The notes: generated by a model not told the origin, from the letters alone. A stretch of DNA of 64,000 nt from Oscillatoriales cyanobacterium (GCA_004292515.1 RDXB01000039.1:1778-65777); one strand, 5' to 3'. Positions 1,388 through 63,185 are shown, counted from the stretch's first letter. A program made the numbers and translations.

Positions 1388-1737
1388 AATGACCTCCTGA
1401 GAATACTGTCGCAATCTAGACAACATCTCAATATAGGGATTGAAAGCCTGCTTGTCCACTGGGCGATCGAGGCGATTGCCCTAGGAATAGAGCTGATTGC
1501 TAAGTTGGTGTGGAGCGAATCCCTGAGTTCCGAGGATTAGCTGCGATCCACTGCAATGGGGACTGTAATCACCAGTGTAGCCCAGGGACGGGAAACCGGA
1601 GTTGGGGCACGCTGGGGCACAGAAAATCAACCTTGCGGCGTGGGGTGGCAATGCAAAATCAGCCACTCCAGCCTTAAACCTGGTGGCGTGGAGGAGCGGT
1701 TGCCAATCCTGTTCAGTTTGAATTTTGTTTTCTAGAC

Positions 1738-7897: not shown

Positions 7898-7937
7898 GGT
7901 TTTCTAGTTGATTTGTGGGCAATACCAGATCGTTAGG

Positions 7938-8024
7938 CAGCAAGAGGTTGAAGCCCCTTGTTACTATGACTGACTCGCAAGCAGCAAGGGGCTGAAGCCC
8001 CTTGTTACTATGACTGACTCGCAA
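7938..8024. repeat. 44-bp tandem duplication of the internal palindrome segment of the 145-bp MITE family
   Basis: CAGCAAG(A/G)GG(T/C)TGAAGCCCCTTGTTACTATGACTGACTCGCAA x2 between convergent genes. Confidence 0.75.
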
Positions 8025-13483: not shown

Positions 13484-13715
13484 CCTGTAATCTCCCTTCC
13501 ATTGGCTGACGAGGTTAGCTGACGGGCTAGGCTTGGAAGTCGCCTTCTTGAGTGACAAGATTCGCCCCGAATAATGCTGGTTCCCCCGCTCGATCGCCTT
13601 GCATCATCAAACTCAGAAACTATATCGCAGCCTCTCAAGCAAGATGAGTATCTGGCTTGACTTGGGAGCTGAATTCTGAAGCCTCGATCAGCACGATCAA
13701 TTAAGCCGTCTACAT

Positions 13716-15157: not shown

Positions 15158-15178
15158 TTTGGGTTAGATCGCGCGTAT

Positions 15179-15253
15179 CGGAGGGCGCAAGGCGTTGTGC
15201 TTAGTCCTGCCTGAGTCGATCGAACCGGAGGGCGCAAGGCGTTGCGCCCCTAC
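15179..15253 (-). repeat. GTAG-footed REP-like tandem (GTAGGGGCGCAACGCCTTGCGCCCTCCGG, 2 copies)
   Basis: 15216-15253 is the exact reverse complement of 16013-16050. Confidence 0.85.
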
Positions 15254-15392
15254 GGAGGGGGTGGGGTCGATCGCCCGGTCAATGGGTGACGATCGGTGGT
15301 GCGTACCCGGCGCGGTAGGATAGGGAGTCGCAATTTTTGTGGCTATTCGTTTGCTTCGTCCTGTCGCTCCATCTATCGTTCCATCCGCCGCC

Positions 15393-15995: not shown

Positions 15996-16012
15996 CCCTA
16001 ACCGTCATTCCC

Positions 16013-16129
16013 GTAGGGGCGCAACGCCTTGCGCCCTCCGGTTCGATCGATCCAGGCGAGACACAACGCCTTGCGCCCTCCGGTTCGATCGATTTGGGCA
16101 GGCCTGGGCGCACGGCGGTGCGCCCCTAC
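16013..16129 (+). repeat. REPIN-like cluster: two direct REP copies plus one inverted copy
   Basis: GTAGGGGCGCAACGCCTTGCGCCC ... GGGCGCACGGCGGTGCGCCCCTAC. Confidence 0.8.
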
Positions 16130-16954: not shown

Positions 16955-16974
16955 CAAGGGGCTTAAGCCCCTTG
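16955..16974. repeat. 20-bp perfect palindrome CAAGGGGCTTAAGCCCCTTG
   Basis: Identical copies at 18900, 28077, 30564, 49019 and 55981. Confidence 0.9.
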
Positions 16975-17034: not shown

Positions 17035-19194
17035 ATGGTCATGAGAGCCACGCGCTGGGCGATCGCCCCGGAAGATGCCGATCGCGCCGTTGAGATTGCA
17101 GCGGCCACGGGCCTGTCGCCGCTGTTGGCCCAGGTGCTGATCAACCGGGGTATCGATACGCCGGAGCTGGCCGAGCTGTTTCTCGATCCGGATTTGGCGG
17201 AACTGCCCAGCCCGATCGAGGAGTTTCCCGACCTGGCCCCGGCGCTGGATCTGTTGGCCGAGGCGATCGACCGGGGCGATCGCCTCGGGATTTGTGGCGA
17301 CTACGACGCGGACGGCATGACCAGCACCGCCCTGCTGATCCGCGCCTTTCGCCATTTGGGAGCCGATGTGACCGCCTCGATTCCCAGTCGGATGACCGAC
17401 GGCTACGGGATTAACCAGCGGATCGTGGAAGAGTTTCACCAAAACGGGATCAGCCTGATCCTGACGGTGGACAACGGGATCGCCGCCTACGAGCCGATCG
17501 CCCGGGCCCGAGAACTGGGACTAACCGTGATCCTCACGGATCACCACGACGTACCGCCCAAAATTCCCCCCGCCAACGCGATCCTGAACCCGAAATTGAT
17601 CGACCCAGCCTCGCCCTACGCCGGATTGGCCGGGGTGGGTGTGGCCTACGTGTTGGCCGTGGCGTTGGCCCAGCGGATGGGGCGATCGGCCCCGTGGAAA
17701 TCCCTGTTGCAACTGTTCACCCTGGGGACGATCGCCGATCTTGCGCCCTTGACCGGCGTGAATCGGCGCTGGGTGAAACGGGGCCTCAGTTTGCTGCCCT
17801 TTTCCACGGTTCCCGGCATCCGCGCCCTGCAACAGGTGGCGGGGATTAACGTGGCTGGTAATTTGGCCGGCGATGGGCAGTCGGACGGCAACGCCATCCC
17901 TAGCGCCATGGCCAGCACCAGCAAAGGCCCCCTGAAACCGGAGGCGATCGGCTTTCGGCTCGGGCCGCGGATCAACGCCGTGGGGCGGATTCACCAGCCG
18001 AATGTGGTGATCGACCTGCTGACCACCGATGACAGCGGCGAGGCCCTAGAGCGGGCCATGCAGTGCGAGGAAATTAATCACAAGCGCCAACAGATTTGCA
18101 ACCAAATTGAGCAGGAAGCCCACGCCTGGGTGCAGGCCAGCGATCTGGATCTGAAGGCGGCGCGGGTAATGTTGGTGGTGCAACCGGATTGGCACCACGG
18201 GACGATCGGGATTGTCGCCTCGCGGTTGGTGGAACGCTACGGCGCGCCCGTGTTCATCGGCACTTACGAAGAAGACAACCCCGAGCAGGTGCGTGGTTCC
18301 GCCCGCAGCATCCCGGAATTCAACGTGTTTGAAGCCCTGGAATTTTGCAAAGATCTGCTGACCAAACATGGCGGCCACCGGGCGGCGGGCGGCTTTTCGC
18401 TCCCGGCGGCGAATTTGCCCGCTTTTGAGGCGCGGTTGCGGGAATTTGCCCAAACCTGCCTCAAGCCGGAGCATATTTGCCCACTGGTGCAGCCCGATGT
18501 GCGGGCCAGCCTGAGCGAGCTGGATGGGGAGCTGTACGAGCAAATCGATATGTTGCACCCCTGCGGCATTGGCAACCCCGATCCGGTGTTTTGGTCGCCG
18601 GGGTTGCAGGTGGTGGGTCAGCGGCAGTTGGGCCAGGATCGCAAGCATTTGCGGCTCACGCTGTCCGATGGGACGGCCCAAATCGAGGCGATCGCCTGGC
18701 GTTGGGGCGATGCGTTTCCGTTGCCGCCCGTGGTGGATCTGGCCTATCAGCTCAAGGAAAACCACTGGAACGGCGCGGTGAATTTGGAACTGGACGTGGT
18801 GGCGATTCGGCCTGCCGCTGGAGTGAGCGCCCCGGTACGATCGCTGATCGTCGCCGATCGCCCCGCCACTTACGATCCAGCCGCCACCCTGATCGTAGGC
18901 AAGGGGCTTAAGCCCCTTGCCCCCAATAGCCGCCAGCCCCTTACCCCCAGCACCCCCAAACGAGCTGGTTTTACCTTCCGCGATCGCCCCTACAACTGTG
19001 CCTGGGGCGATCGCGACGGCCAGCCAGAACTCCGCATTCGTAACCCCGAGGGCAAAGTGCTGGCCCTAGTGGATGGTGAATCCACCGGCTTGCTTGGCCC
19101 CAGTCGGGAAACGGCCGAGCCGGTGGATTTGAATCATCCCTTTTTTCGGTCGCTGATTGCCGCCGCCAAAGTGGCCCTGACTGGGACGACCTAG
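17035..19194 (+). CDS. recJ: Single-stranded DNA exonuclease RecJ with a C-terminal extension
   Basis: GDYDADGMTST, TVDNG, TDHH (DHH), GTIADLAPL, KHGGHRAAGG. Confidence 0.92.
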   Translation: MVMRATRWAIAPEDADRAVEIAAATGLSPLLAQVLINRGIDTPELAELFLDPDLAELPSPIEEFPDLAPALDLLAEAIDRGDRLGICGDYDADGMTSTALLIRAFRHLGADVTASIPSRMTDGYGINQRIVEEFHQNGISLILTVDNGIAAYEPIARARELGLTVILTDHHDVPPKIPPANAILNPKLIDPASPYAGLAGVGVAYVLAVALAQRMGRSAPWKSLLQLFTLGTIADLAPLTGVNRRWVKRGLSLLPFSTVPGIRALQQVAGINVAGNLAGDGQSDGNAIPSAMASTSKGPLKPEAIGFRLGPRINAVGRIHQPNVVIDLLTTDDSGEALERAMQCEEINHKRQQICNQIEQEAHAWVQASDLDLKAARVMLVVQPDWHHGTIGIVASRLVERYGAPVFIGTYEEDNPEQVRGSARSIPEFNVFEALEFCKDLLTKHGGHRAAGGFSLPAANLPAFEARLREFAQTCLKPEHICPLVQPDVRASLSELDGELYEQIDMLHPCGIGNPDPVFWSPGLQVVGQRQLGQDRKHLRLTLSDGTAQIEAIAWRWGDAFPLPPVVDLAYQLKENHWNGAVNLELDVVAIRPAAGVSAPVRSLIVADRPATYDPAATLIVGKGLKPLAPNSRQPLTPSTPKRAGFTFRDRPYNCAWGDRDGQPELRIRNPEGKVLALVDGESTGLLGPSRETAEPVDLNHPFFRSLIAAAKVALTGTT
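18900..18919. repeat. 20-bp palindrome embedded in-frame in recJ
   Basis: CAAGGGGCTTAAGCCCCTTG translates within GKGLKPLA. Confidence 0.9.
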
Positions 19195-25715: not shown

Positions 25716-27116
<1,401 letters not shown>

Positions 27117-27123
27117 TCAAAAA

Positions 27124-27206
27124 ACAGCTTTCCTACGCCGGTTTGAACCGGATCAGGTTCTAAGGGTGTGTTCTCAGCCTGGAAACGATCCCAGACACCC
27201 CTAGCT
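27124..27206 (-). promoter_or_regulatory. TPP riboswitch
   Basis: Minus strand AGGGGTGTCTG...GCTGAGAACACACCCTTAGAACCTGATCCGGTTCAAACCGGCGTAGGAAAGC, immediately upstream of thiC. Confidence 0.95.
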
Positions 27207-27457
27207 CGGCCAGTTGATCGCTGGCACTCGGGTTTCATCCTACCATTTTGGTTCGGAGGAGATGGGGCCCAAAAGCAGGCCAGCTCCTGGGGCGATCGCG
27301 GTGAGGCAAGCGATCGACCAGCGCGTGATCCCGGTGGAATCTGGCCCGATCTCCTGTGGGTTAATAACCCTGACGCTTGCTTGACTCTAGTGCAGGAGAT
27401 GGGCATTCATTGCTTAAGAAAGGGCAATATTCCCAGTAAAATGCCGAGAGTCTTTCG

Positions 27458-27910
27458 GTGGGGATGGGTGAAGTTTTTATGGTGCGCGGCCCTGGATTTT
27501 GGTTCACGTTTATTTACTACACCGTGACAGCAACGACCGTGGCGGCGATCGCCAGCGCTCCGCTCTTGTTTGAGGGAAATCTGGGTCTGGAAGCCTTACA
27601 AACAGCCTTGCCCGCTGGTTTAGCGATCGGAGCCTTGGGGGCTTATTTTAACCACAGCATTGCGATCGATTTTGCAATGAAAAATACCCGCGAATTTCAA
27701 CAGCAACTCACCCAGACCCTGGCAGACTTGGGATTTAGCCCCATGACCGATCCTGACCCAGCTCTGGCTGAATTTGCAGTGTACGAGCGCGGGGCGATCG
27801 GCAAGTGGTTTTCCGGGCGGGTGTTGGTGAAGCTCGATCGCCAACAGGCCACCATTATGGGGCGGGCGGGCTTGATGCGAAAACTGCGCGATCGCCTTTC
27901 CCAAGCTTGA
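27458..27910 (+). CDS. Hypothetical membrane protein
   Basis: Two hydrophobic helices followed by a soluble tail; gene-like codon usage; divergent from thiC. Confidence 0.6.
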   Translation: MGMGEVFMVRGPGFWFTFIYYTVTATTVAAIASAPLLFEGNLGLEALQTALPAGLAIGALGAYFNHSIAIDFAMKNTREFQQQLTQTLADLGFSPMTDPDPALAEFAVYERGAIGKWFSGRVLVKLDRQQATIMGRAGLMRKLRDRLSQA

Positions 27911-27949
27911 TTGCATCCGTCAGCAGATCGTTGAGGATCACAGGGGCTG

Positions 27950-28162
27950 AGGGCTGGTCGTCAAATCGCCCAAAACCCTGCTTCCACCGTGAGCAGATCG
28001 TGGGGAATAAGATGCTCAGGGCTGGTTGTCAAATCGCCCAAAACCCTGCTTCCACCGTGAGCAGATCGTGGTGCAGCAAGGGGCTTAAGCCCCTTGTTAC
28101 GACGACTGGCGCACAAAAAATCGACCGTTTCAGCTTCATTTCAGCGAATGACGATCGGCCCT
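27950..28162 (+). mobile_element. Nested ~145-bp MITE-like element: full copy at 28018-28162 preceded by a left half at 27950-28017
   Basis: Imperfect TIRs AGGGCTGGTTGTCA / TGACGATCGGCCCT; internal AAACCCTG..TCCACCGT.AGC.GATCGT and the 20-bp palindrome; homologous to 30497-30640, 48960-49103 and 55915-56014. Confidence 0.75.
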
Positions 28163-28176
28163 AATGCTGCAAATGG

Positions 28177-28209
28177 GTAGGGGCAGGAGTTCAAGCCCCC
28201 TGCCCCTAC
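28177..28209. repeat. GTAG-footed REP-like hairpin
   Basis: GTAGGGGCAGG ... CCTGCCCCTAC, 11-bp stem. Confidence 0.7.
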
Positions 28210-28615
28210 GTGATTGGGTATCGATTGTGGAAACTGCTCGAAAACTGGTGAGTGACCAGCATTTAGCGGTTTATTAGCTGTTCAACTGACGACGCAGTTG
28301 CTCCAGAGCCGCTTTACCAATATTGAAAACAGCCCAGCTAGCGGCCAGCAGGAGCGGAGCAACCACAACCAAAACGCGCCAATCCATATCTCAATCTCCC
28401 GTAACAGTTCTAAAAACAGGCGAGCCAATTTAATTAAATGCCATTGTCGGGCATTTCGGGCATCCTGGCACAAATCGATTGGCTATCTGTATCGGTTCCG
28501 ATGGGGTTTGCGATGGGGTTTGCGATGGGGTTACGGATCGGTTGCAGACCTGTGACCGATCGCAAAGTATCGAGGGTGTTGGCCCCTTGGCGGTTTGCCC
28601 TCAGGAGCCTACCCG

Positions 28616-29224
28616 CTAATGGGGATCGGTGAATCCCAGATCTGTGCCCTGGCCCGCATGGACGAGGGCCAGCTTGCGGTAGCGATCGGCATGGTCAACT
28701 TGGGCGGCCACTTCTGCGTCACTGAGCGATCGCACCACCTTGCCGGGAATACCCACCACCAGCGATCGCGGTGGCACATCTTTGGTGACGACGGCTCCCG
28801 CGCCGACAATGCTGCCCGCCCCAACCCGCACGCCGTTGAGGACGATCGCCCCCATGCCAATCATGCAGCCCCGTTCGATGTGGGCTGAGTGAATAATCGC
28901 CCGGTGGCCCACGGTCACGTCGGCTTCTAGGATCGTTGGCTGGCCCGGATCGCCGTGGAGCACTGCGCCGTCTTGCACATTGCTGTTGGAACCCACCACA
29001 ATTTGTTCCACATCGCCCCGCAACACGGCTCCATACCAAACGCTTGCCCCCTCAGCCAGGGTGACCCGACCGATCACCGTGGCATTGGCCGCCACAAAGG
29101 CCGCCGCTGCGATCTCCGGCGTACCCAGCACGGGGTGGGCGATCGCGCCGGCCGAATCCAAACGTGACAAATCTAAACTGGACAAATCCAAGGGTGACAA
29201 ATCCGAACGTGACAAATGATTCAT
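28616..29224 (-). CDS. Gamma carbonic anhydrase family (hexapeptide-repeat) protein
   Basis: VWYGAVLRGDV, NVQDGAVLH, VTVGHRAIIH. The N-terminus is built from a 15-bp repeat. Confidence 0.88.
   Translation of the reverse strand: MNHLSRSDLSPLDLSSLDLSRLDSAGAIAHPVLGTPEIAAAAFVAANATVIGRVTLAEGASVWYGAVLRGDVEQIVVGSNSNVQDGAVLHGDPGQPTILEADVTVGHRAIIHSAHIERGCMIGMGAIVLNGVRVGAGSIVGAGAVVTKDVPPRSLVVGIPGKVVRSLSDAEVAAQVDHADRYRKLALVHAGQGTDLGFTDPH
29161..29220. repeat. 15-bp tandem repeat x4 encoding the (LS.xD)n N-terminus of the gamma-CA
   Basis: AACGTGACAAATCTA / AACTGGACAAATCCA / AGGGTGACAAATCCG / AACGTGACAAATGAT. Confidence 0.8.
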
Positions 29225-29355
29225 GAAACGCGGGTTTTGTCCCAAGCCGCCAAAACGACATCGTTATAATAGGACAGCAATTAGACAGCGCGGCAATTGC
29301 CCGCGATCGAACCCCGCTTCCACCGCCTGTTTTGCCCGAGGTTTCGATCGGACTC

Positions 29356-29859
29356 ATGTTCAATCCGGCGTTGCAGTACCCCATCTTCGGCCCCGAGATT
29401 TTTTGCCCCCATTGTCGGCAGCCAATCCCGGCCTTGACCCTGACGGACACCTATCTTTGTCCTCGGCATGGCGCGTTTGAAGCCGATCCCAACACCCAAG
29501 AGTTGGTTCATCTCCAATCCGGTCGTCATTGGCGGCAGTGGGAGGGCGAGTGGTATCGCCAACATACCCACCCGGACGGGATTCGATTTGAAATTCATGA
29601 GGCGCTCGATCGCCTCTACACCCAAGGGTTTCGGGCCACGAAGGTGACGATCGCCCACCGTTACCAATCCCTGATTGCGTCCTATCTCGATCGGGCTAAT
29701 CCCCGCGCCCCCAACGCCGACGGCAACCCTCGGCTCTATGGGCTGCCGGTGGAATTTAGTCCCCTTGATGAGGACGATCGCTGGAGTGTGATTAATTTTT
29801 TGCTCGACCAAGAACCCGGAGTACCCGTGCGCTATCCCTATTTCCGGTTGTTTGAGTAG
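29356..29859 (+). CDS. Conserved cyanobacterial TIGR02652 family protein
   Basis: LQYPIFGPEIFCPHCRQ, YRQHTHPDGIRFEIHEALDRL, YPYFRLFE. Confidence 0.85.
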   Translation: MFNPALQYPIFGPEIFCPHCRQPIPALTLTDTYLCPRHGAFEADPNTQELVHLQSGRHWRQWEGEWYRQHTHPDGIRFEIHEALDRLYTQGFRATKVTIAHRYQSLIASYLDRANPRAPNADGNPRLYGLPVEFSPLDEDDRWSVINFLLDQEPGVPVRYPYFRLFE

Positions 29860-29888
29860 CCGATCGCCTAGGGTGATTCAAGCGAGCT

Positions 29889-30353
29889 ATGCACCATGTT
29901 TCCCTGCGAACGGCGGATATTCACCGGGCGATCGCCTTCTATGAAGCTTTGGGGTTTGCCATCACGGAGCGGTTTACGGCGGGCATAACCCTGGCTTGCT
30001 GGCTGGAAGGTTGGCAAGGGCGCATCGAACTGCTGCAAGTGCCGGAACCGAAGCCTGCTCCCGATCCCTTTGGCGACGAGCATTATGTGGGCTACTACCA
30101 CCTGTCGCTGGATTTGGCGCGATCGCCCGACCAACCAACCGAAGCGACTGAGCCGCGCTTAACAATACCGACTTGGTTGAGCTTGCTGGGCGATCGGCTG
30201 GCTCCCCAACCGCTGAAGGTGTTGCTGAGGCCCCAACAGCAAATGATCGGGCGCGGGATCTACGAGGTAGTGTTCATCGCCGACCCAGACGGAATGCCGA
30301 TCGAAATTCTGCAATGGCAAACCAACCTCCCGATCAATCTGCCATCTGCGTAA
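29889..30353 (+). CDS. VOC/glyoxalase family protein
   Basis: MHHVSLRTADI..AIAFYE, GYYHLSLDL, FIADPDGMPIE. Confidence 0.85.
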   Translation: MHHVSLRTADIHRAIAFYEALGFAITERFTAGITLACWLEGWQGRIELLQVPEPKPAPDPFGDEHYVGYYHLSLDLARSPDQPTEATEPRLTIPTWLSLLGDRLAPQPLKVLLRPQQQMIGRGIYEVVFIADPDGMPIEILQWQTNLPINLPSA

Positions 30354-30390
30354 AATCCAAATAAAATCCAAGACCACCCCCAAAACTCGG

Positions 30391-30420
30391 ATAGGGTCAG
30401 GTTTTGAAACCTGCCCCTAC
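30391..30420. repeat. REP-like hairpin
   Basis: ATAGGGTCAGGTTTTGAAACCTGCCCCTAC. Confidence 0.6.
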
Positions 30421-30496
30421 TAGCGAAGCAAGTTGATTCTGATAGGCCACCTTAAAGGCTGTTAGCGTTACCCAATCATTAGATGATAAGGGGCTT

Positions 30497-30640
30497 AGGG
30501 GGTGTCATCATTTTCCATAACTGAGTCTGAAATCGTCGATTTCCCGCGCCTCAATGGTCGTAACAAGGGGCTTAAGCCCCTTGCCCCCACGATCCGCTAA
30601 CGGTGGAGTCAGGGTTTCAGGGTAATTGATGACAGGCCCT
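30497..30640 (-). mobile_element. 144-bp MITE-like element sitting in the centre of a split palindrome
   Basis: TIRs AGGGGGTGTCATCA / TGATGACAGGCCCT; flanks AAGGGGCTTA and TAGGCCCCTTG. Confidence 0.8.
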
Positions 30641-30750
30641 AGGCCCCTTGTTCCGACGACCGACTGACAACTCTGACCCAATGAATTAAGGCAGCCACGC
30701 TACTACGACGGACTCGGAGATCAACCAGCAATTGACTGACGGCAATTGGC

Positions 30751-31944
30751 TTAACGGGAAGCGCGCACCAACAGCGTTGCCCCCAAGCCACAGACCAACA
30801 GCAGCGGTGTCCAAGTGGCGACGATCGGGGACAGAATCTCTTTCAGCCCCAAGGCATCCATCACGAAGGCCAAGAGATAGTAGGCAAAAATCACCACGAC
30901 GCTGATGCCAAAGCTGGTGGCCCGGCCCAGGCGCTGGTGGCGACGGTTGGCCAAGGCGGAACCCACTAGGCCAAAGGCCAAACAAATGAAGGGGAAAGCG
31001 TATTTTTGTTGAATCCGCAGTTCCAGCTTGTTGATTTCGGCCCGTTCACCCGTTTGCCGCAGCAGTTCGAGGCGCTTTTGGGCTTCGATGATGTTTAGCT
31101 CATTGGAGAAGCGATCGCGCACGGCCAAGTCCAGGGGCGTACGGGGCAGTTGCAGCCGCTGTTGCTCAAAACGCAGGATGTCGCGGTAGGAACCATCGGG
31201 AGCTACTAAATAGATCGTGCCATTTTTGAAATCCCAGGCCCGTTCGGTGGGGTTCCAGGCGGCGGTTTTGGCGGTGACGATTTGGCTGATGCCGGCTTGG
31301 GAGCGATCGATCACCGTCAGATCAAGCATCTGTTTGCCGTCATAGCGCTCGGCGTAGAACACGCGGGTCAGGATATTTTTCTTCTCCCCATTACCTTGCT
31401 CAACCTCACCAAATTCCCGATAAAAGATATTCTCTTCGCGGAATGAGGGCTGCTCATCATCGGTGCCCAGGGCCCGTTCCATGATGATGGTGGCTTGGTA
31501 GTTGGCGGCCGGGACGATCGCCTCGTTAAACACAAAGGTCATGCCCGTGACAAACAGACTCAGCACAACGGCCGGAGCGACCAACCGATAGACGCTCACG
31601 CCGCAACTCCGCAGGGCCACTAGCTCGCTGTCGTTGGAGAGCCGCCCAAAGGCCATCATCGAGGCCAGCAGGGTGGACATGGGGAATGACAGCACAATGA
31701 AATACGGCATCCGCAACAGCAAAATTTGCAGGGCCAAATGGAAGGGCAGCCCTTCTTCAACGACTTTGCGAACCAGCTCAAAGACTGCGCCCACGGACAC
31801 GCCGATCGAGGAGAAGGCCCCCACCCCAAACAAAAAGGGCATGGCCAGCTCTTTGGCCAGGTAGAGATCCATCACGCTGATTTGCGGCAGCCAATGGGGC
31901 CAGGCGGAGAGGGGCGATCGTTGCGGCAGGGTATTGGGAGTCAT
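30751..31944 (-). CDS. LptF/LptG family LPS export permease
   Basis: MDLYLAKELAMPFLFGVGAF, GRLSNDSELVALRSCGVS, QQKYAFPFICLAFGLVG. Confidence 0.88.
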   Translation of the reverse strand: MTPNTLPQRSPLSAWPHWLPQISVMDLYLAKELAMPFLFGVGAFSSIGVSVGAVFELVRKVVEEGLPFHLALQILLLRMPYFIVLSFPMSTLLASMMAFGRLSNDSELVALRSCGVSVYRLVAPAVVLSLFVTGMTFVFNEAIVPAANYQATIIMERALGTDDEQPSFREENIFYREFGEVEQGNGEKKNILTRVFYAERYDGKQMLDLTVIDRSQAGISQIVTAKTAAWNPTERAWDFKNGTIYLVAPDGSYRDILRFEQQRLQLPRTPLDLAVRDRFSNELNIIEAQKRLELLRQTGERAEINKLELRIQQKYAFPFICLAFGLVGSALANRRHQRLGRATSFGISVVVIFAYYLLAFVMDALGLKEILSPIVATWTPLLLVCGLGATLLVRASR

Positions 31945-32030
31945 AGGCGAGCCATTGCGGGCAGACGGCGGGCGATCGAGCAAAAGTCAGTCAGGCAACC
32001 AGGCGGAGCTTGTTCGGTGGGTTGGGGACT

Positions 32031-33741: not shown

Positions 33742-36700
33742 TCAGCGCGTGAGTTGTTGGCGACAAGCCCGACTCAGCCCCAAAAGCGCTTGGTCATCCC
33801 GGCTGCGCGTCAAATAGTCTTGCAACCAACGACAACTGCGATCGAGCAATTCCCGAGCATCCAGACTGCGCCAAATTAACTGCTGGTCATAACCTCCAGA
33901 CACCAGCAACTGGCCATCCGGGCTAAACCGCACCGCGCCTACCCCGGCTTTGTGTTCTTTGAAGGTTTTGAGCCGCTCCCCTTCCCGACTCCACAGGGTG
34001 ACCGATCCATCCCAACTAGCGGCGGCCAAGAATAGACCATCGGGACTAAACCTCACACTGTTCACGGCATCCCCATGGCCCAGCACCCGGATCAGGTTGC
34101 CATTGGCTGTCCAAATTCGTACGGTGCTGTCATCGCCGGCCGAGGCCAGGAATCGACCATCGGGGCTGAAGGTGACATCGGTGACAGCGCTGCTATGGCC
34201 GGCGAGGGTGCGAACTTGTTGACCTTGCAGGTTCCAAATCCGAATCAGGTTGTCATGGCCGCCCGTGGCCAGCCATTTGCTGTCGGGGCTGAAGGTGATG
34301 CTGTTGAGGCGTTTGGCCCGATCGTCACTGGAGGCCAGCTCGAATTGAGTGACGGTTTGCCCATTGCGCCGCCACACATAGCCACGTCCGTTGCGATAGG
34401 TGGCGGCAATCAGCTCGCCATTGGGACTGAAGGCCACGCTGGAAACGGTTTGGTCATTGGGGTTGTTGGGGTTTTGGGAACTAGCAACGGATTTGGTGTC
34501 GGTCAGAATCCGTTGGAGTCGCCCCGATCGCGACCACAGGCGCACATGGCCATCGTTGTTACCCACCAAGATGGTTTGACCATCGGGGCTAATGGCCGCA
34601 GAGCCAATCCCACCGCCCGGATCGGTGAAGTAGGTGGGTTGGCGGGTTTTGCGATCCCAGAGCTTGACCTGCCGATCGCTGCCCGCCGACAGAATGGTGG
34701 AGCCATCTTGGCTGATGTCGAGACCATAGATGCGATCGGTATGGGCCGTGATTTGGACGATCGACTCGGGTTGTAACCGCCACAGCCGCACCGTGCGATC
34801 GTAGCTGGCCGAAATCAGCGATCGCCCATCGGGACTAAAGGCCACACTCGTGACCCGATCGGTGTGACCCACAAAGGTTTGCTGCAACGCCCCTTCAAAA
34901 GTCCAATACTTAACGAGTTTGTCTTTGCCTGCGGAGGCGATCGAGCGGCCATCGGCACTAAACGCCACGCTCAACACCCCATCCTGGTGGGCCGCAATCA
35001 TCCGCACCGGTTTTCCCCCACTAGTCCAAACCCGAATGGTCTTATCGAGGCTGCCGGAAGCCAAATAGCGCCCATCGGCACTAAAGACCACACTCATCAC
35101 AATGTCGCTATGGCCGCGCAGGGTAGCTAGTTCTTGGCCCTGAACCGTCCAGAGCCGCACGGTGCGATCGTCGCTGGCCGTAACCAAGCGCTGGCCATCG
35201 GGACTAAACGCCACCCAATCCACCGGGCCTTGATGGCCCGCCAACGTGGCCACAAGCTGTCCCTGCAAATTCCAAATCTTGGCCGTGCCATCGTTGCTGG
35301 CAGTGGCCACCAACTGCCCATTGGGACTAAAGGCAATGCAATAGATCGAATCAGGATGGCGACCAAGCTCGCGCACAAACTGCCCCGCGCTCGTCCACAA
35401 CTGCAATTGGCCAATCCCTTTGCCTGTGCTGGTAGCCAGCCAGCGACCATCGGGGCTAAACACCGCATTGGTGGCGCTGGAGTTGTGGCGCAGCACGATC
35501 GGCCGATCTTGGGCATTCTGCATAGGCAAGCCATTGGATAGCCACAACCGTACGGTGCGATCGGCGCTAGCCGTCGCCAACGTGCCTTGGGGGCCCACAC
35601 TCACATCCCAAACAATATCGCTATGGGCGCTGGGCCCTTCGAGCCGGTTATATTCCCGAATCCGGGCCAAGGCTTGCTGCAAGGTGGCGGCCACCTTCAG
35701 TTCGGTGGCCCGGCGCGTGCTGGGCTTGGCCCACACCACCCAGAGGCGTTGCTGGCGTTGCTGCCAGGCTTGCAATCCCGCAATCAACGATTCAAAGGAT
35801 TGGTTCGACCCCAGCAGGGCCTCGGAGGCGGTGGCCGTTGCACTAATTTGGGCGCTGGCCTCATCGGCAGCCAGCCGCGCTGCAAACCCCAGGGACGACA
35901 GGAACAAAATCCCCAACACAGCCCCGGCGGCGTAGAGTTCGCGCACCCGTTTGTTGAGGATGGTGTTGAGTTGGGATTGGGTGAGCCGGAAGCGGGCCCG
36001 CTCGTCGGCCTGGCGTTGCTGGCGAATGAAGGTGACGAGGTAATCGTGCACCAGTTGATAAAAATCGGCGGTGGATTCGCGGAACATCACCACTAGCCCA
36101 GCACCAGAGAGAATTCTGAGCACCAGTTCCAGTTGGCTGTGGCTGGCTCCCAGTTCAGCGGCCAGTTCAGTGCGGGTTTTCAGGGGGCGAGTGCCGTTTT
36201 CGGCCGTGAGCAAAAACAGCACTTGGCGGGCAATGTTTTCGCTCTCGGGGCCGCAGTCGCGGATTGTGTTTTCGAGGTAGCGTTCCACCAGCACTTCTTT
36301 GGAGCCGTATTCTCGCTGGTAGTCCGTGAGGGTGGCGATCCGATCGGCTTGGAGCTGGGCACCCACCACTTGCAGTTCGATCGGGTTGACTTCACCGGTT
36401 TCGCGGGCCAACTCGCCTACCAGGGCATCGATCAAGTCGGGTTCGAGGCCCAGGCGCGATTGCTCGGTCAGGCTTTGGATTGTGGCGCGGGCATCGGTGG
36501 GCGAAAAGTCCCCAATGTAGTAGCGCACTTGGCGGGCCAGGATGTTGTCGTCAATGATCGACAGGTCAGTGGCGCGCTCCCACTCCAAGAGGAAGTGCAG
36601 GTAATCTTCGCGCATGGAGATGATCAGCTTGACGTAGGGCACGTTCAAGCAATCGCGCAGGAATTCAAAAAATTGCTGTCGTTCGCTGACGGTGGGCCAG

Positions 36701-39172: not shown

Positions 39173-40045
39173 GTTGTGCTGTGTCCGTCGTAACAAACCG
39201 TTGATCGTGCCGGCCGCTGATTGTGCTCAGTTTTTGAGGTGGCTCCAAAACCGTGGGAGCAAGACAGTCACTGGTTTTTGGGGTTCCCCCTCCGCGATCG
39301 CCGTTGCTGAAGCTTAAGCAAACGAGGCGATCGCCCCAAAAATCAGTCAAATCAGTCAACAAAGCCAGCAAAGCCAGTCTTGACCGGAAAAGCCTGACCC
39401 AAAATGAATGCTAATTGTCCCCTTCCAATTAATGTGGCGCGATTGTGGTGAATCGGGTGATTAAACCGACTCATAAAGCTGCGATCGCACCGTCAATTTA
39501 GGTCAATTTAAGTCAACCAATTTGGGTCAGTAAAACCGATCAAATCAAGTCAACTCACCGAGTGAATGCTCAGGTGATGAATTGATCCGAAACAGCCCAC
39601 CAATTGCTAAGGGGTCTGATCCCTAATTAGTCCCAACATAGTACATCTCTCATGGCGCGTCTTAAAGTGAATGGCTAGTGACGTAGACGAACGATCGAGA
39701 GTAGCAATAAGATGAAGACTCTGGCCAGTGCTCCGTGTTTACACGCAGAAATCGACAGGATTCATGGTTGATTCCTATTGAGAAAGGACGAAAAACAGAA
39801 ACTTTATCAAATCTTTAAAATAGTCAAATGACAGCGATCGCCATCACAAGGATGGGAGGAATTCATCAACCACTCAGGACTGACGCAGGGTTGGCTCAGA
39901 CCCTCATCCCCAGCCCCGCTCCCAATGGGGTTGGGGGAAACCCGCAAGATGGTGATTTCCCGGCTCCCAGAATAGGAGCAAGGGTTGGCGAATGGGGACA
40001 GTTGAGACGTTGCGTGAGGCCGACCCCTGAAGCGATCGCCCCTAA

Positions 40046-40134
40046 TGGTTAACTAGCCCGTGGTTAACTAGCCCGTGGTTAACTAGCCCGTGGTTAACTA
40101 GCCCGTGGTTAACTAGCCCGTGGTTAACTAGCCC
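40046..40134. repeat. Perfect 15-bp tandem repeat TGGTTAACTAGCCCG x6
   Basis: Read directly from the sequence, just downstream of purE. Confidence 0.95.
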
Positions 40135-40152
40135 AGGCGATCGCCAGCATTT

Positions 40153-48901: not shown

Positions 48902-48959
48902 CGCGATCGGTCAAAGCTAAAGCACCACCGCTACGCAGTCCTGTGGCAACCAGGAGCTT

Positions 48960-49103
48960 AGGGGGTGTCGTCCAATCGCCTAAAACCCTGATTCCACCGT
49001 GAGCGGATCGTTAGGCAGCAAGGGGCTTAAGCCCCTTGTTACGACGACTGGGGCATGGAAGATCAACTGTTTCAGCTTGACCCCAGAAATGACGACAGGC
49101 CCT
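48960..49103 (+). mobile_element. 144-bp MITE-like element nested in a degenerate older copy, inside the ABC operon
   Basis: TIRs AGGGGGTGTCGTC / TGACGACAGGCCCT; left flank CAGGAGCTTA; right flank repeats GGGGCATGGAAAATCAACTGT. Confidence 0.8.
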
Positions 49104-49205
49104 CCCCTGCTATGACAATTGGGGCATGGAAAATCAACTGTCTAATCGTCTTTCTGGCATTTTGTACAACATTGCTCAACCCAAATCGGGGGCTATGGTT
49201 TCTCA

Positions 49206-51863: not shown

Positions 51864-52655
51864 ATGAAGTTGAAATCATCTACGGCTTGGTTGTTGGCGA
51901 TCGCCCTCGGGGTGGGGGGCGGCGTGGCCCTGTTTGAGATCCGATCGACCCAGCAACAGGTGGCGCAACAGCAGCAATCGAAACTGTTCAGCATCACCGA
52001 GGCGGAGATCCAACAAATCACGCTGAAGTTGGGCGATCGCACGGTGCAGCTCGATCGCCCGGAACCGTTTCAACCGGGCAAAACCGTTTGGCAGCTACGG
52101 CTAAACGGCGAGGCAACGGAACCGGCTAGTGACGGGGCGGTGGCGTTTTTGACCAATCTGCTGGCCACCTCCCAGCGCGATCGCACGATTACCCAAGGGC
52201 GTGATCGGCTGAAGGAATTGGGACTCGATCGCCCCCGCGCCGAGATCACGTTTCGGCTGAAGTCGGGTAAGCAACATCAACTGGCGATCGGGCAGGCCGG
52301 TTTTGACGATTCGTTTCTTTATGGGTTGGTGGATGCGCCGAATCCTTTGCCGGATCAGGTGTCGGTGTCGCTGATTCCCAAGGATTTTCAGGTGGCGGCG
52401 ATCGACCGGCCGATCGCGGAGTGGAAGCGACCGCCGCCGCCCCCGAGTCCCAGCCCGAGCGCCAGCCCCAGCCCGAGCGGATCGGCCGCGCCCAGCCCAG
52501 CAGCTAGCCCGACAGCCAGCCCGAGCGCTAGCCCGAGTCCGAGTGCTAGTCCGAGTGCCAGCCCCAGCCCAGCGGCTAGCCCCAGCCCAGCGGCTAGCCC
52601 CAGTCCGACGGCCTCGCCATCGCCCGGGGCCTTGCCCAGTCCCGCAACACCGTAG
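51864..52655 (+). CDS. DUF4340 domain protein with an (ASPSP)n tail
   Basis: N-terminal anchor, ELGLDRP, AIG..GFDDSFLY; typical last gene of Gld-type operons. Confidence 0.8.
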   Translation: MKLKSSTAWLLAIALGVGGGVALFEIRSTQQQVAQQQQSKLFSITEAEIQQITLKLGDRTVQLDRPEPFQPGKTVWQLRLNGEATEPASDGAVAFLTNLLATSQRDRTITQGRDRLKELGLDRPRAEITFRLKSGKQHQLAIGQAGFDDSFLYGLVDAPNPLPDQVSVSLIPKDFQVAAIDRPIAEWKRPPPPPSPSPSASPSPSGSAAPSPAASPTASPSASPSPSASPSASPSPAASPSPAASPSPTASPSPGALPSPATP

Positions 52656-53074
52656 GGGCGTACGGCCGCACGCCCTCCGATCGCTGACGGTGTGCTATGC
52701 CCGATCGCCCCGATCAGGCTGGGTTTTGCCTGGGTTGTGCCAATGGCGGGCCTGGCGCAGCAGCAACAACGACAACCGCAGGATCTTTTCGAGCCGACCG
52801 GCCAGGACGCAAATGGTGAGCAGGGCGAGCAGCCAACTGGGGGGATTAGTAGCGATCGGCTCGACGCAACCCGCCCGCAGAGCCGTAGGGTGCAGAGAAG
52901 CACGCTCAGCCATCAAATAACCATTGCCCCTCATCTCCCCTGCACCTTACGTGATCGCCCCGCCCGAACCATAGGGGCGCATCGCCATGCATCCTCCGAT
53001 CCGAGAGATCTCCGCAATCCAATTTGTTTCAGGCGATCGACCCTGGCAGAGGGCGTACGGCGGTACGCCCCTAC
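52652..53074. repeat. REP cluster: 52652-52682 (+), 52971-53002 (+, degenerate), 53049-53074 (-)
   Basis: GTAGGGGCGTACGGCCGCACGCCCTCCG and GAGGGCGTACGGCGGTACGCCCCTAC. Confidence 0.75.
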
Positions 53075-55770: not shown

Positions 55771-55914
55771 GATGATTTTGTGGTGCGCGGCGGTGCGACA
55801 AACTCGTTAGCAGCGGGGCGATCGGCTGGTGGCCCTACCCGCTGAATGAGTTTGTATCCTATCACTGACCCCGGCCGCGCGTTTCACAGGACGGCGGCCC
55901 CAGACAAGGGGTTT

Positions 55915-56014
55915 AGGGGCTGTCGTCATTGCCAGTAGGGATGCTGAAACGGTTGATTTTCTGTACCCCAATGGTCGTAACAAGGGGCTTAAGCCCCTTG
56001 CTCCCCACGATTCT
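55915..56014 (-). mobile_element. Truncated (right-half) copy of the MITE inside a split palindrome
   Basis: Flanks CAAGGGGTTTA (55905-55915) and TAAACCCCTTG (56014-56024). Confidence 0.75.
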
Positions 56015-56130
56015 AAACCCCTTGCCCCCGACGATCGGGCAATCCCTTGGCCCCAATTTAATCGGGGGCGATCACTATAATGGGCCTGAAGATTAGGGCC
56101 TGAAAATCACAGCCCGATCGCCCTCAGCCC

Positions 56131-62718: not shown

Positions 62719-63093
62719 GAGCGCGGCGCAACAAAAAGGCTAGGAGCAATCGCGAATGAGCTGGGCCTGGCAAGGGGGTGAACACCACAATCTTGGCCAC
62801 AAGCCGGAATCAAAATTATCTGGAATTGATGCAGAGGTCGCATGGTGTTTGCCCTCAGGATCAGCCCCCACTTGCTAAGTCTCAGGGCCTCGCCAGCCCA
62901 TGAGGGGATGCATCACAACGGCGATTTTTCTCATCATCGGCCTTTGCCCACTCTCCAGCATTGCCCAACGTTGGCTGACCCGAGTTCCCTAGTCCCACTG
63001 CTTACTCTAATTGTTAGACCGAACTTGCGCCTCTTGCCACCCCATCTCCCGATCCGAGCGCGATCGCCTGGGGGGATTCGATCGGCAGCCTCG

Positions 63094-63185
63094 GCCGGTG
63101 GCAGGACAGTCAGCCGGTGGCAGGACAGTCAGCCGGTGGCAGGACAGTCAGCCGGTGGCAGGACAGTCAGCCGGTGGCAGGACAG
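63094..63185. repeat. 19-bp tandem repeat GCCGGTGGCAGGACAGTCA, about 4.8 copies
   Basis: Read directly from the sequence; no spacers between units. Confidence 0.92.

Follow-up and report, generated by a model that had tools for sequence, protein, structure and literature searches.

Bacterial MITEs are non-coding elements of ~100-170 bp that lie between genes in high copy number, carry terminal inverted repeats and form stable hairpins, and Nezha of Anabaena/Nostoc is a small MITE that is moved in trans and shares its ends with ISNpu3 (PMC3184786). The element analysed here, which we call F1, resembles Nezha, RUP and the Correia elements in being small, non-coding, intergenic and present in high copy number, with inverted ends, a short flanking repeat and a hairpin; it differs from these IS630-type MITEs, whose ends are those of a known insertion sequence, in that no partner was found for it. 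RUP (of pneumococcus) and the Correia elements (of Neisseria) insert at TA. To our knowledge, neither these two nor Nezha have been reported to home to a 20-bp palindrome or to carry such a target at their centre.

The insertion sequences IS1397, ISKpn1, ISPpu9/ISPpu10 and IS621 insert sequence-specifically into REPs, abundant extragenic palindromes that serve as harmless landing sites (PMC1525189, PMC3184786, PMC12288879). REPs are defined by a GTAG/CGTC tag at one end of the palindrome (PMC3733652). The elements that target them are autonomous members of the IS3 and IS110 families, and the host repeat that they enter is not carried by them, whereas F1, a non-autonomous element with TA flanks, supplies its target anew each time it inserts. 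That target, a 20-bp palindrome that we call PAL, differs from a REP in having no GTAG/CGTC tag and in not being linked to a Y1 transposase gene here.

In the Plant Cell in 2001, Jiang and Wessler reportedly described Tourist-like MITEs of maize and rice that self-insert into a preferred site and form multimers, and the preference is said to reach past the duplicated bases to a short palindrome. The Tourist-like elements belong to the eukaryotic PIF/Harbinger group, duplicate 3 bp (TAA/TTA) and favour a loose palindrome of 9 bp; F1, in contrast, has a bacterial host, a TA flank and, as its target, a perfect 20-bp palindrome that is common to other families. Elhai et al. are said to have reported in 2008 that SDR4-6 of Nostoc and relatives are palindrome-containing repeats of 21-27 nt that occur in many contexts, and to have proposed that they are mobile. 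PAL is likewise a very short palindromic cyanobacterial repeat that is also found inside other repeats. It differs from SDR4-6 in its sequence and in its occurrence in at least 24 genera, and there is no evidence here of PAL moving alone. SDRs are reported only in Nostocaceae (PMC5861425).

We analysed a window of 64,000 nucleotides, the whole stretch RDXB01000039.1:1778-65777 from an Oscillatoriales cyanobacterium (GCA_004292515.1), and compared it with the rest of the genome and with other cyanobacteria. F1 integrates at TA, with a strong preference for the TA at the centre of PAL, and the reading that we favour, with a probability of roughly 0.7, is that it is a non-autonomous DNA transposon (MITE) of ~145 bp on which a DDE transposase of IS630/Tc1-mariner type would act in trans. 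Elements of this kind are known, and the new variations are a near site-specific target that replenishes itself and a palindrome found across families.

Structure, abundance and genomic context of F1

F1 is a non-coding element of ~145 bp with TA on either side, and the consensus of 114 distinct full copies is 146 nt long, with terminal inverted repeats of 14-16 bp (TA-GGGSCTGTCRTCA ... TGAYGACAGSCCC-TA). In the consensus alignment, the ends TAGGGSCTGTCRTCA and TGAYGACAGSCCCTA had a per-column conservation of 0.8-0.9, and PAL (CAAGGGGCTTAAGCCCCTTG), a perfect 20-bp palindrome at the tip of the hairpin, was nearly invariant. Conserved arm blocks such as CTGAAAC and GTTTCAG mirror one another, which indicates that F1 is a single long imperfect hairpin, and folding of F1 as single-stranded DNA gave one long hairpin. 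Direct inspection showed that the terminal repeat has GGGGCT at its tip and that these six bases also abut TA in PAL. The units in the window start with TA-GGGSCTGTCRTC, finish with GAYGACAGSCCC-TA and have CAAGGGGCTTAAGCCCCTTG at their centre. F1 shares with bacterial MITEs its small size, the lack of coding sequence, many dispersed copies and terminal inverted repeats.

The genome surveyed is a 3.98-Mb draft in 111 contigs with 56% G+C and 7,010 HIP1 sites, which mark it as cyanobacterial; of the relatives that have a name, Limnothrix sp. BL-A-16 is the nearest. A profile built from three full F1 copies gave 512 nhmmer matches in this genome, and profiles of the half-arms resolved 721 half-units at 389 loci, occupying 49.7 kb (1.25%). 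F1 is confined to the genus Limnothrix, where sister species also have it. Rfam has no family at the element, and a plasmid collection gave no F1 match.

Analysis of the neighbourhood of F1 placed the element largely outside genes. Only 20 of the 389 loci (5%) overlapped predicted genes in a genome that is 75% coding, the gene predictions used for this comparison being crude ORF picks. Convergent spacers held 99 F1 loci and divergent spacers 48, against 546 and 543 such spacers genome-wide, while the orientation of F1 relative to neighbouring genes was unbiased (45 versus 30; P = 0.11).

The features of the window are listed in Table 1. The initial annotation had proposed three homologous units and a half copy, and all four are present (copies A to D), as are the isolated palindromes that it had listed at 7941 and 7985, both of them degenerate, and at 16955 and 18900, together with the fragment near 1614. 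Its description of copy C as flanked by a decayed older copy was borne out by the right arm that is kept immediately downstream. Copy B belongs to the youngest F1 subfamily, with 97-98.6% identity to four other copies, and its outer flanks resemble the core of another repeat. Copy D lies in a variant palindrome, CAAGGGGTT-TA / TA-AACCCCTTG, and comparison with copy B suggests that the loss of the rest of its left arm fits a deletion at CTAA microhomology. Two window loci were compared with BL-A-16, and both are at gene-order breaks.

Table 1. F1 and PAL features in the 64,000-nucleotide window
Feature	Position	Strand	Description
Short fragment like F1 right arm	1611-1632	+	22 nt, GCTGGGGCACAGAAAATCAACC; compared with consensus
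Two tandem 44-bp units	7926-8024	+	Degenerate PALs at 7941-7960 and 7985-8004, each with arm TTACTATGACTGACTCGCAA; core remnant of another PAL-bearing family, F3b type (repeat-scan family D7)
Solo exact PAL	16955-16974	.	Between fabG-like gene and recJ; same place in Limnothrix sp. BL-A-16
Exact PAL in recJ	18900-18948	+	In frame, encodes KGLKPL in variable linker, then 24-nt duplication
Older left-arm remnant	27917-27948	+	Ends in degenerate half-palindrome CACAGGGGCT; CCGTCAGCAGATCGTTGAGGATCACAGGGGCT aligns with consensus ..CCGTTACCAGATCGTGGGGAGCAAGGGGCT
Extra F1 left half	27949-28016	+	GA-flanked; decayed half-palindrome AATAAGATGCT at end; nhmmer left-half match
Full F1 copy A	28017-28163	+	Left flank CA, right flank TA
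Copy A, left arm	28018-28087
Copy A, PAL	28077-28096
Copy A, right arm	28086-28163
Full F1 copy B	30496-30641	-	In PAL-like site AAGGGGCT-TA / TA-GGCCCCTTG
Full F1 copy C	48959-49103	+	PAL at 49019-49038; nested in older decayed F1 copy
Right-arm remnant of older F1 split by copy C	49104-49157	+	nhmmer right-half match, model positions 6-59; CCCCTGCTATGACAATTGGGGCATGGAAAATCAACTG
Truncated F1 copy D	55914-56015	-	Right arm, PAL (55981-56000) and 14 nt of left arm

Target preference of F1 and distribution of PAL

The flanks at 30.5 and 55.9 kb had been read as the two halves of the palindrome with TA repeated, and this is what we observed. To quantify the preference across the genome, we rebuilt an empty site for every one of the 114 full F1 copies from the flanking sequence and scored it against the 20-nt PAL. 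The rebuilt site matched PAL without mismatch in 6 copies, with one mismatch in 14 and with at most four mismatches in 32 of the 114. PAL-like TA sites make up 0.5% of the 105,252 genomic TAs, which corresponds to a 54-fold enrichment (binomial P = 1.3e-45). At the 76 remaining F1 sites, positions -8 to -1 and +2 to +7 still agreed with PAL more often than background, and sites that are not PAL showed a weaker preference for GGCTTAAGCC-like sequence. Since the remaining sites are weakly PAL-like, the preference is graded, with PAL as the optimum. A looser count found at least one half-palindrome flank in 52 of the 114 copies (both sides in 26, left only in 14, right only in 12); random flanks, the outcome that would have spoken against targeting, were not what the tabulation gave. 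The preference was also evident among the youngest copies. Eleven of the 19 copies with a sister at least 96% identical were in PAL, and the five copies of the youngest subfamily, 97-98.6% identical, occupy five unlinked loci, of which four are PAL-like sites.

We examined the bases at the insertion point for evidence of a target duplication. T..A flanks were found in 80 of the 114 full copies. Gene identity to the closest genomes is 77-94% and the spacers are unalignable, and in one run the Logan contigs that share identical neighbouring proteins ended inside F1; intact PALs were used as surrogate empty sites, against which the TA flanks fit a 2-bp duplication or an element-borne TA alike. 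The bases outside TA (C/T on the left and A/G on the right) are not repeats of each other, so that an IS5-like duplication of 3 or 4 bp is excluded; at PAL sites they are T and A, as suits a repeat of no more than 2 bp. Of the TA/YTAR targets that had been proposed, TA is thus retained, but a 4-bp YTAR duplication of IS5 type does not fit the flanks.

PAL is not restricted to F1, and around many inserted F1 copies the flanks run on into other sequence. The genome contains 272 exact PALs and no copy of the reversed control sequence, and a census of PALs outside F1 matches revealed at least three other repeat families with a central PAL, namely F2, with ends TA-GAGGATGTCTGAAAAG, and F3a and F3b, with ends TA-GTAGCGCGGCAAGCT. 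F1 was found inside PALs of F2 (e.g., C66:111035, C25:24233 and C84:33292), inside the PAL of an F3a element at C53:3600 and, in both orientations, inside PALs of older F1 copies; the assignment of host families was made from 15-nt flanks and is noisy. F2 and F3 are themselves located at ordinary TA sites, outside PAL. The entry of F1 into PALs of F1, F2 and F3a indicates that it is PAL-targeting and that "self-targeting" is a special case. Consequently, the proposal that the element brings its own preferred target stands insofar as PAL is both carried and preferred, but it does not stand as a description of a private target, because PAL also occurs in at least three other families and in 24 of 100 genera. 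Likewise, the isolated palindromes of the window had been taken as possible empty sites, and they are not simply that: another repeat family accounts for two, which are its cores, and a third is an in-frame part of recJ.

The wide distribution of PAL raises the possibility that the true functional or mobile unit is PAL together with a few bases on either side, either a mobile or captured hairpin module or the binding site of a widespread cyanobacterial protein. It would then have entered many unrelated mini-transposons, F1 would be one carrier that also homes to it, and "self-targeting" would be a by-product. In a balanced sample, the exact 20-mer was present in 42 of 201 cyanobacterial genomes, representing 24 of 100 genera, and was often multicopy (326, 272, 182, 94, 51, 42 and so on per genome), whereas the reversed control was absent everywhere. 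An exact-match scan of one genome per species gave at least 111 stretches; the matches listed were mostly from cyanobacteria, and the genera among them included Pseudanabaena, Limnothrix, Leptolyngbya, Nostoc, Snowella, Spirulina, Caldora, Stenomitos and others. The repeats that contain PAL have unrelated ends (TA-CAGC.., TA-TAGCGGTAGTCAC.., ATACCAATT.., TA-GAGGATGTCTGA.. and TA-GTAGCGCGG.., and further TATAGCGGTTCCC.., TATAGCAACCGCC.. and TACAGCACTTCC..), and, as judged by eye, PAL is exact in F3a and F3b while their arms differ strongly. PAL also occurs alone, as in recJ, where it is in frame, and in six viral contigs, and a 12-nt duplication of half of PAL recurs in independent genomes. The bases adjacent to PAL are commonly GG..TT or GA..TC, so that one strand folds better as RNA (-22.5 versus -14.9 kcal/mol). 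A text search of the literature for the PAL sequence found no paper.

These observations favour a unit smaller than F1, but other results argue against it. A BLAST search of this genome found no copies of F1, F2, F3a or F3b with the arms joined minus PAL, and no duplication flanks PAL. PAL also holds a homologous, constant position in diverged subfamilies which, together with the absence of PAL-less copies, favours inheritance within each family over repeated entry. No gene consistently adjoins PAL, loci with PAL totalling ~1.2 Mb contained no IS630-like ORF, the PALs near one IS630 in G003 (BL-A-16) lie outside that IS630, and the Y1 genes have GTAG-type repeats instead. No stand-alone insertion of PAL as an SDR-type unit of 21-27 nt was seen. 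In recJ, PAL is exact in this genome (G000) and in BL-A-16, has four mismatches in a third congeneric species (G002) and is absent in the next genus (G004); it is therefore shared by descent within the genus, and the 24-nt duplication of the right half-palindrome that follows it is specific to this genome. In 410 kb of another PAL-rich genome (G043), all 12 PALs were intact and lay inside two TA-flanked families; no split PALs were found there, and a search for the parent of the G043 family Y by its end sequence returned single ends only. On balance, we consider it unlikely that PAL is the unit in its own right, and such a role would in any case be compatible with the insertion of F1 into PAL.

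Nests, stacks and half copies

The architecture of the F1 loci was consistent with insertion of the element into its own kind. The initial annotation had proposed nested copies of an inverted-end, TA-flanked, multicopy MITE that prefers the central TA of its palindrome, and nests were found, in both orientations. With L and R denoting the left and right halves, 131 loci were simple L R copies, 70 were solo left halves and 42 solo right halves; 14 loci read L L R and 6 read L R R, and complete nests comprised four direct (L L R R) and four inverted (L R< L< R) examples.

An alternative is that nests and stacks arose by tandem duplication, slippage or repeat recombination instead of targeted transposition. 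To some extent the data support this. About 14 of the 54 pairs of adjacent same-type halves, about a quarter, have an identity of 87% or more, which random pairs exceed only beyond their 90th to 99th percentile, and look like products of local or tandem duplication. One-sided stacks outnumber complete nests, and GGGGCT at both ends of the half-unit could seed slippage. An array at C88:29059-29408 consists of one full F1 and, after it, three right halves of 69-70 bp that all begin with TA, and its adjacent units are near-identical. The stack at 27.9-28.2 kb of the window probably belongs here as well. It had been described as left halves stacked by serial nesting, each ending in a degenerate half-palindrome. 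The degenerate half-palindromes are there in succession (CACAGGGGCT, AATAAGATGCT and CAAGGGGCT), but the left halves starting at 27949 and 28017 are 91% identical, at the 99th percentile of random pairs and well above the median of 77%, and the stack more probably arose by local duplication, or by deletion, than by serial nested hits.

Several results speak against duplication as a general explanation. The likeness of 38 of the 54 adjacent pairs was no greater than that of random pairs (median identity 0.77 between left halves and 0.74 between right halves), and these halves are therefore independent copies. Tandem duplication cannot produce the inverted nests or the entries into PALs of other families, nor does it account for the five near-identical copies at unlinked loci or for a PAL enrichment with P about 1e-45. 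We therefore regard it as very unlikely that duplication explains the nests and stacks at large, while the flagged stack is likely a case of it.

Targeted insertion would itself provide a route to the one-sided forms. Entry of F1 into PAL would create two pairs of 11-bp direct repeats, of which CAAGGGGCTTA would bracket the new left arm and TAAGCCCCTTG the new right arm. Deletion between either pair would remove one arm and rebuild an intact PAL beside the surviving half, which would account for the abundance of solo halves and for the one-sided stacks, and reciprocal exchange between the 11-bp repeats would yield tandem duplications like the flagged stack. The F3a element at C53:3600 has the structure predicted for such an arm deletion, with PAL followed by an F1 right arm and then by half of PAL.

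Candidate transposases and a proposed role of F1

Inverted ends, TA and the lack of orientation bias point to an IS630/Tc1-mariner-type DDE enzyme, which we infer would act on F1 in trans. F1 is inserted at TA with TA on both sides, as is characteristic of IS630/Tc1-mariner elements, and on the closed chromosome of a sister species 19 copies in the plus orientation and 18 in the minus orientation are interspersed, as expected of a double-strand mechanism. An insertion sequence with ends matching those of F1 had been suggested as a search target; no IS630 or other transposase gene with such ends was found in the genome or its relatives, and neither contained a transposase-encoding element of >300 bp bounded by F1 ends.

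Several candidates were considered and rejected. Pairs of inverted F1-like ends 0.3-6 kb apart, which might have marked a parent element, all enclose ordinary host genes. Small contigs, viewed as possible collapsed insertion sequences, yielded no partner for F1; they contained fragments of housekeeping genes and a Y1 transposase accompanied by GTAG repeats. The two IS630 (DDE_3) loci of the genome, at C61:38240-39170 and C9:12270-13180, have ends (TATAGTAG.. and TATAGCAAGTCG..) that differ from those of F1, and the ends of 18 IS630 loci in seven related genomes are also unlike F1. The DDE_3 and DDE_Tnp_1 loci of this genome and of the taxonomic family have different ends, and the one IS5-type element checked has unrelated ends (TAGACCTCTTGC..). 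A 13-nt match to the F1 end (TAGGGGCTGTCAT) at ~22 contig ends was traced to a position 66 nt inside a TnpB-bearing element of the IS605 family, the left boundary of which is GG-TTAATCAACAGTG; the most plausible explanation is a single chance match that the copy number of this element has multiplied.

A further account, which we consider very unlikely, is that F1 is moved as single-stranded DNA by a Y1/HUH transposase (IS200/IS605 or REP-associated) that cuts the tip of the PAL hairpin, with an element-borne TA. In its favour, the target is a hairpin tip, F1 folds into one hairpin, the genome has three Y1 transposase genes and at least 22 copies of the TnpB-bearing element, and the TA flanks can equally be read as insertion after TTA of an element that ends in CTA. 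Against it, IS200/IS605 elements lack the true terminal inverted repeats and the arms of inverted homology that F1 possesses, the orientation of F1 on the closed chromosome is unbiased, the TnpB match is the chance one noted above, and the three Y1_Tnp loci (C82, C34 and C100) are flanked by their own three GTAG-type repeats and not by PAL, which is absent within ~1.3 kb of the Y1 gene at two of the three. The absence of inverted ends, the subterminal hairpins and the strand-biased insertion that mark IS200/IS605 elements do not describe F1.

Under the DDE transposase reading, a two-fold symmetric transposase complex would read the symmetric PAL target, and the GGGGCT common to the F1 tip and PAL suggests that one protein surface may read both. 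Each hit by F1 destroys one PAL and supplies another. Because every F1 carries PAL, the landing site is replaced at each hit and insertions are kept inside repeats in gene spacers, and because PAL is also the core of F2, F3a and F3b, F1 parasitises those families besides itself.

A broader hypothesis, which we offer tentatively and consider doubtful, is that PAL is a pan-cyanobacterial 20-bp "landing pad" or cis-module, kept at the centre of unrelated mini-transposons because a shared machinery needs or reads it, and that F1 is a hyperparasite of mini-transposon cores that renews the pads. If this is true, F1 replaces the landing pads that it destroys and recycles them via arm deletion, and the whole would constitute a sequence-specific, self-renewing safe-site system. 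We know of no description of such a system for bacterial MITEs. That PAL is identical across unrelated repeats suggests a conserved signal in DNA or RNA, or a conserved protein that reads it, seemingly undescribed. The responsible transposase, if found, could be a compact tool for integrating DNA into cyanobacteria at one defined site of 20 bp.

Target choice in most bacterial mini-transposons is regarded as loose. In F1, by contrast, integration is clearly near site-specific throughout the genome, and the 20-bp palindrome that it enters comes from the element. Its mechanism, as we read it, lets selfish DNA multiply while rarely striking genes. It also builds nests of repeats; the two that were compared between sister species coincide with breaks in synteny.

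Synteny breakpoints and contig ends

Mapping against the sister species Limnothrix sp. BL-A-16 placed the flanking genes of both loci of F1, the TA-flanked MITE, within 26500-32000 of the window at 0.3 to 0.8 Mb from each other in that species, and both loci therefore coincide with synteny breakpoints. Elsewhere in the genome that holds the window (G000), approximately 22 contigs end in a TnpB-bearing IS605-family element, which is therefore a main cause of the fragmentation of this assembly. The left end of the element reads GG followed by TTAATCAACAGTGATTGATTTCC, and the N-terminus that it encodes includes LNNQQRTALARHAGVARHAWNWGLG.

REP families and other features of the window

We observed three distinct GTAG-tagged REP families (GTAGGGGCGCAACGCCTTGCGCCCTCC, GTAGGGTGGGCAATGCCCACC and GTAGGGGCAATCCCCCCGTGG), each of which flanks a Y1 (REP-associated) transposase gene of its own; several REP/RAYT systems therefore run in G000 alongside MITEs. 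The product of the window gene with 123-nt periodic repeats may be a beta-propeller or WD40-like repeat protein.

Coordinates of features in the window, in G000 contigs (C) and in stretches from other sources (L)
Feature	Location	Strand	Detail
TPP riboswitch	window 27113-27212	-	67.5 bits, exceeds Rfam gathering threshold
c-di-AMP riboswitch	window 13489-13619	-	62.1 bits, exceeds Rfam gathering threshold
Perfect 15-bp tandem repeat	window 40031-40149		unit TGGTTAACTAGCCCG, ~7 copies
19-bp tandem repeat	window 63091-63185		~5 copies
Gene with 123-nt periodic repeats	window 33990-35580		
GTAG-tagged REP repeats	window 15167-15255, 16009-16125, 52650-52679, 52967-53074, 28174-28209		
GTAG-tagged REP families/Y1 genes elsewhere	C34, C82:11117-11479, C100:83043-83213		
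IS605-family element at contig ends (examples)	C18:15110-15505, C52:26840-27235, C63:1-190, C95:1-200		TnpB-bearing
PAL in recJ	window 18900-18948		in frame, variable linker
F2 (examples)	C58:5306, C36:51827, C111:2540		ends TA, then GAGGATGTCTGAAAAG
F3a/F3b (examples)	C66:49083, C92:5410, C85:28079		ends TA, then GTAGCGCGGCAAGCT
12-nt half-palindrome duplication	L107:7522-7553, L204:4717-4748, C68:41066 region		Symploca genome, viral contig and G000, respectively

Other settings of the palindrome

The perfect 20-bp palindrome at the centre of F1 (PAL) is also central to further undescribed TA-flanked repeat families of G000, F2 and F3a/F3b, which have unrelated ends. On either side of PAL, approximately 12 nt are common to F1 and F3b. 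The copy within recJ is conserved without mismatch in two of the genus's three species, and in G000 only, its right half is duplicated (24 nt, 8 codons). A 12-nt half-palindrome duplication, in which PAL is followed by TTAAGCCCCTTG or the mirror image occurs, was recurrent in three sources. Exact PAL was present in six IMG/VR viral contigs (L202 to L207), mostly as a solo hairpin in intergenic or intragenic positions, and such contigs could be vehicles for the spread of PAL.
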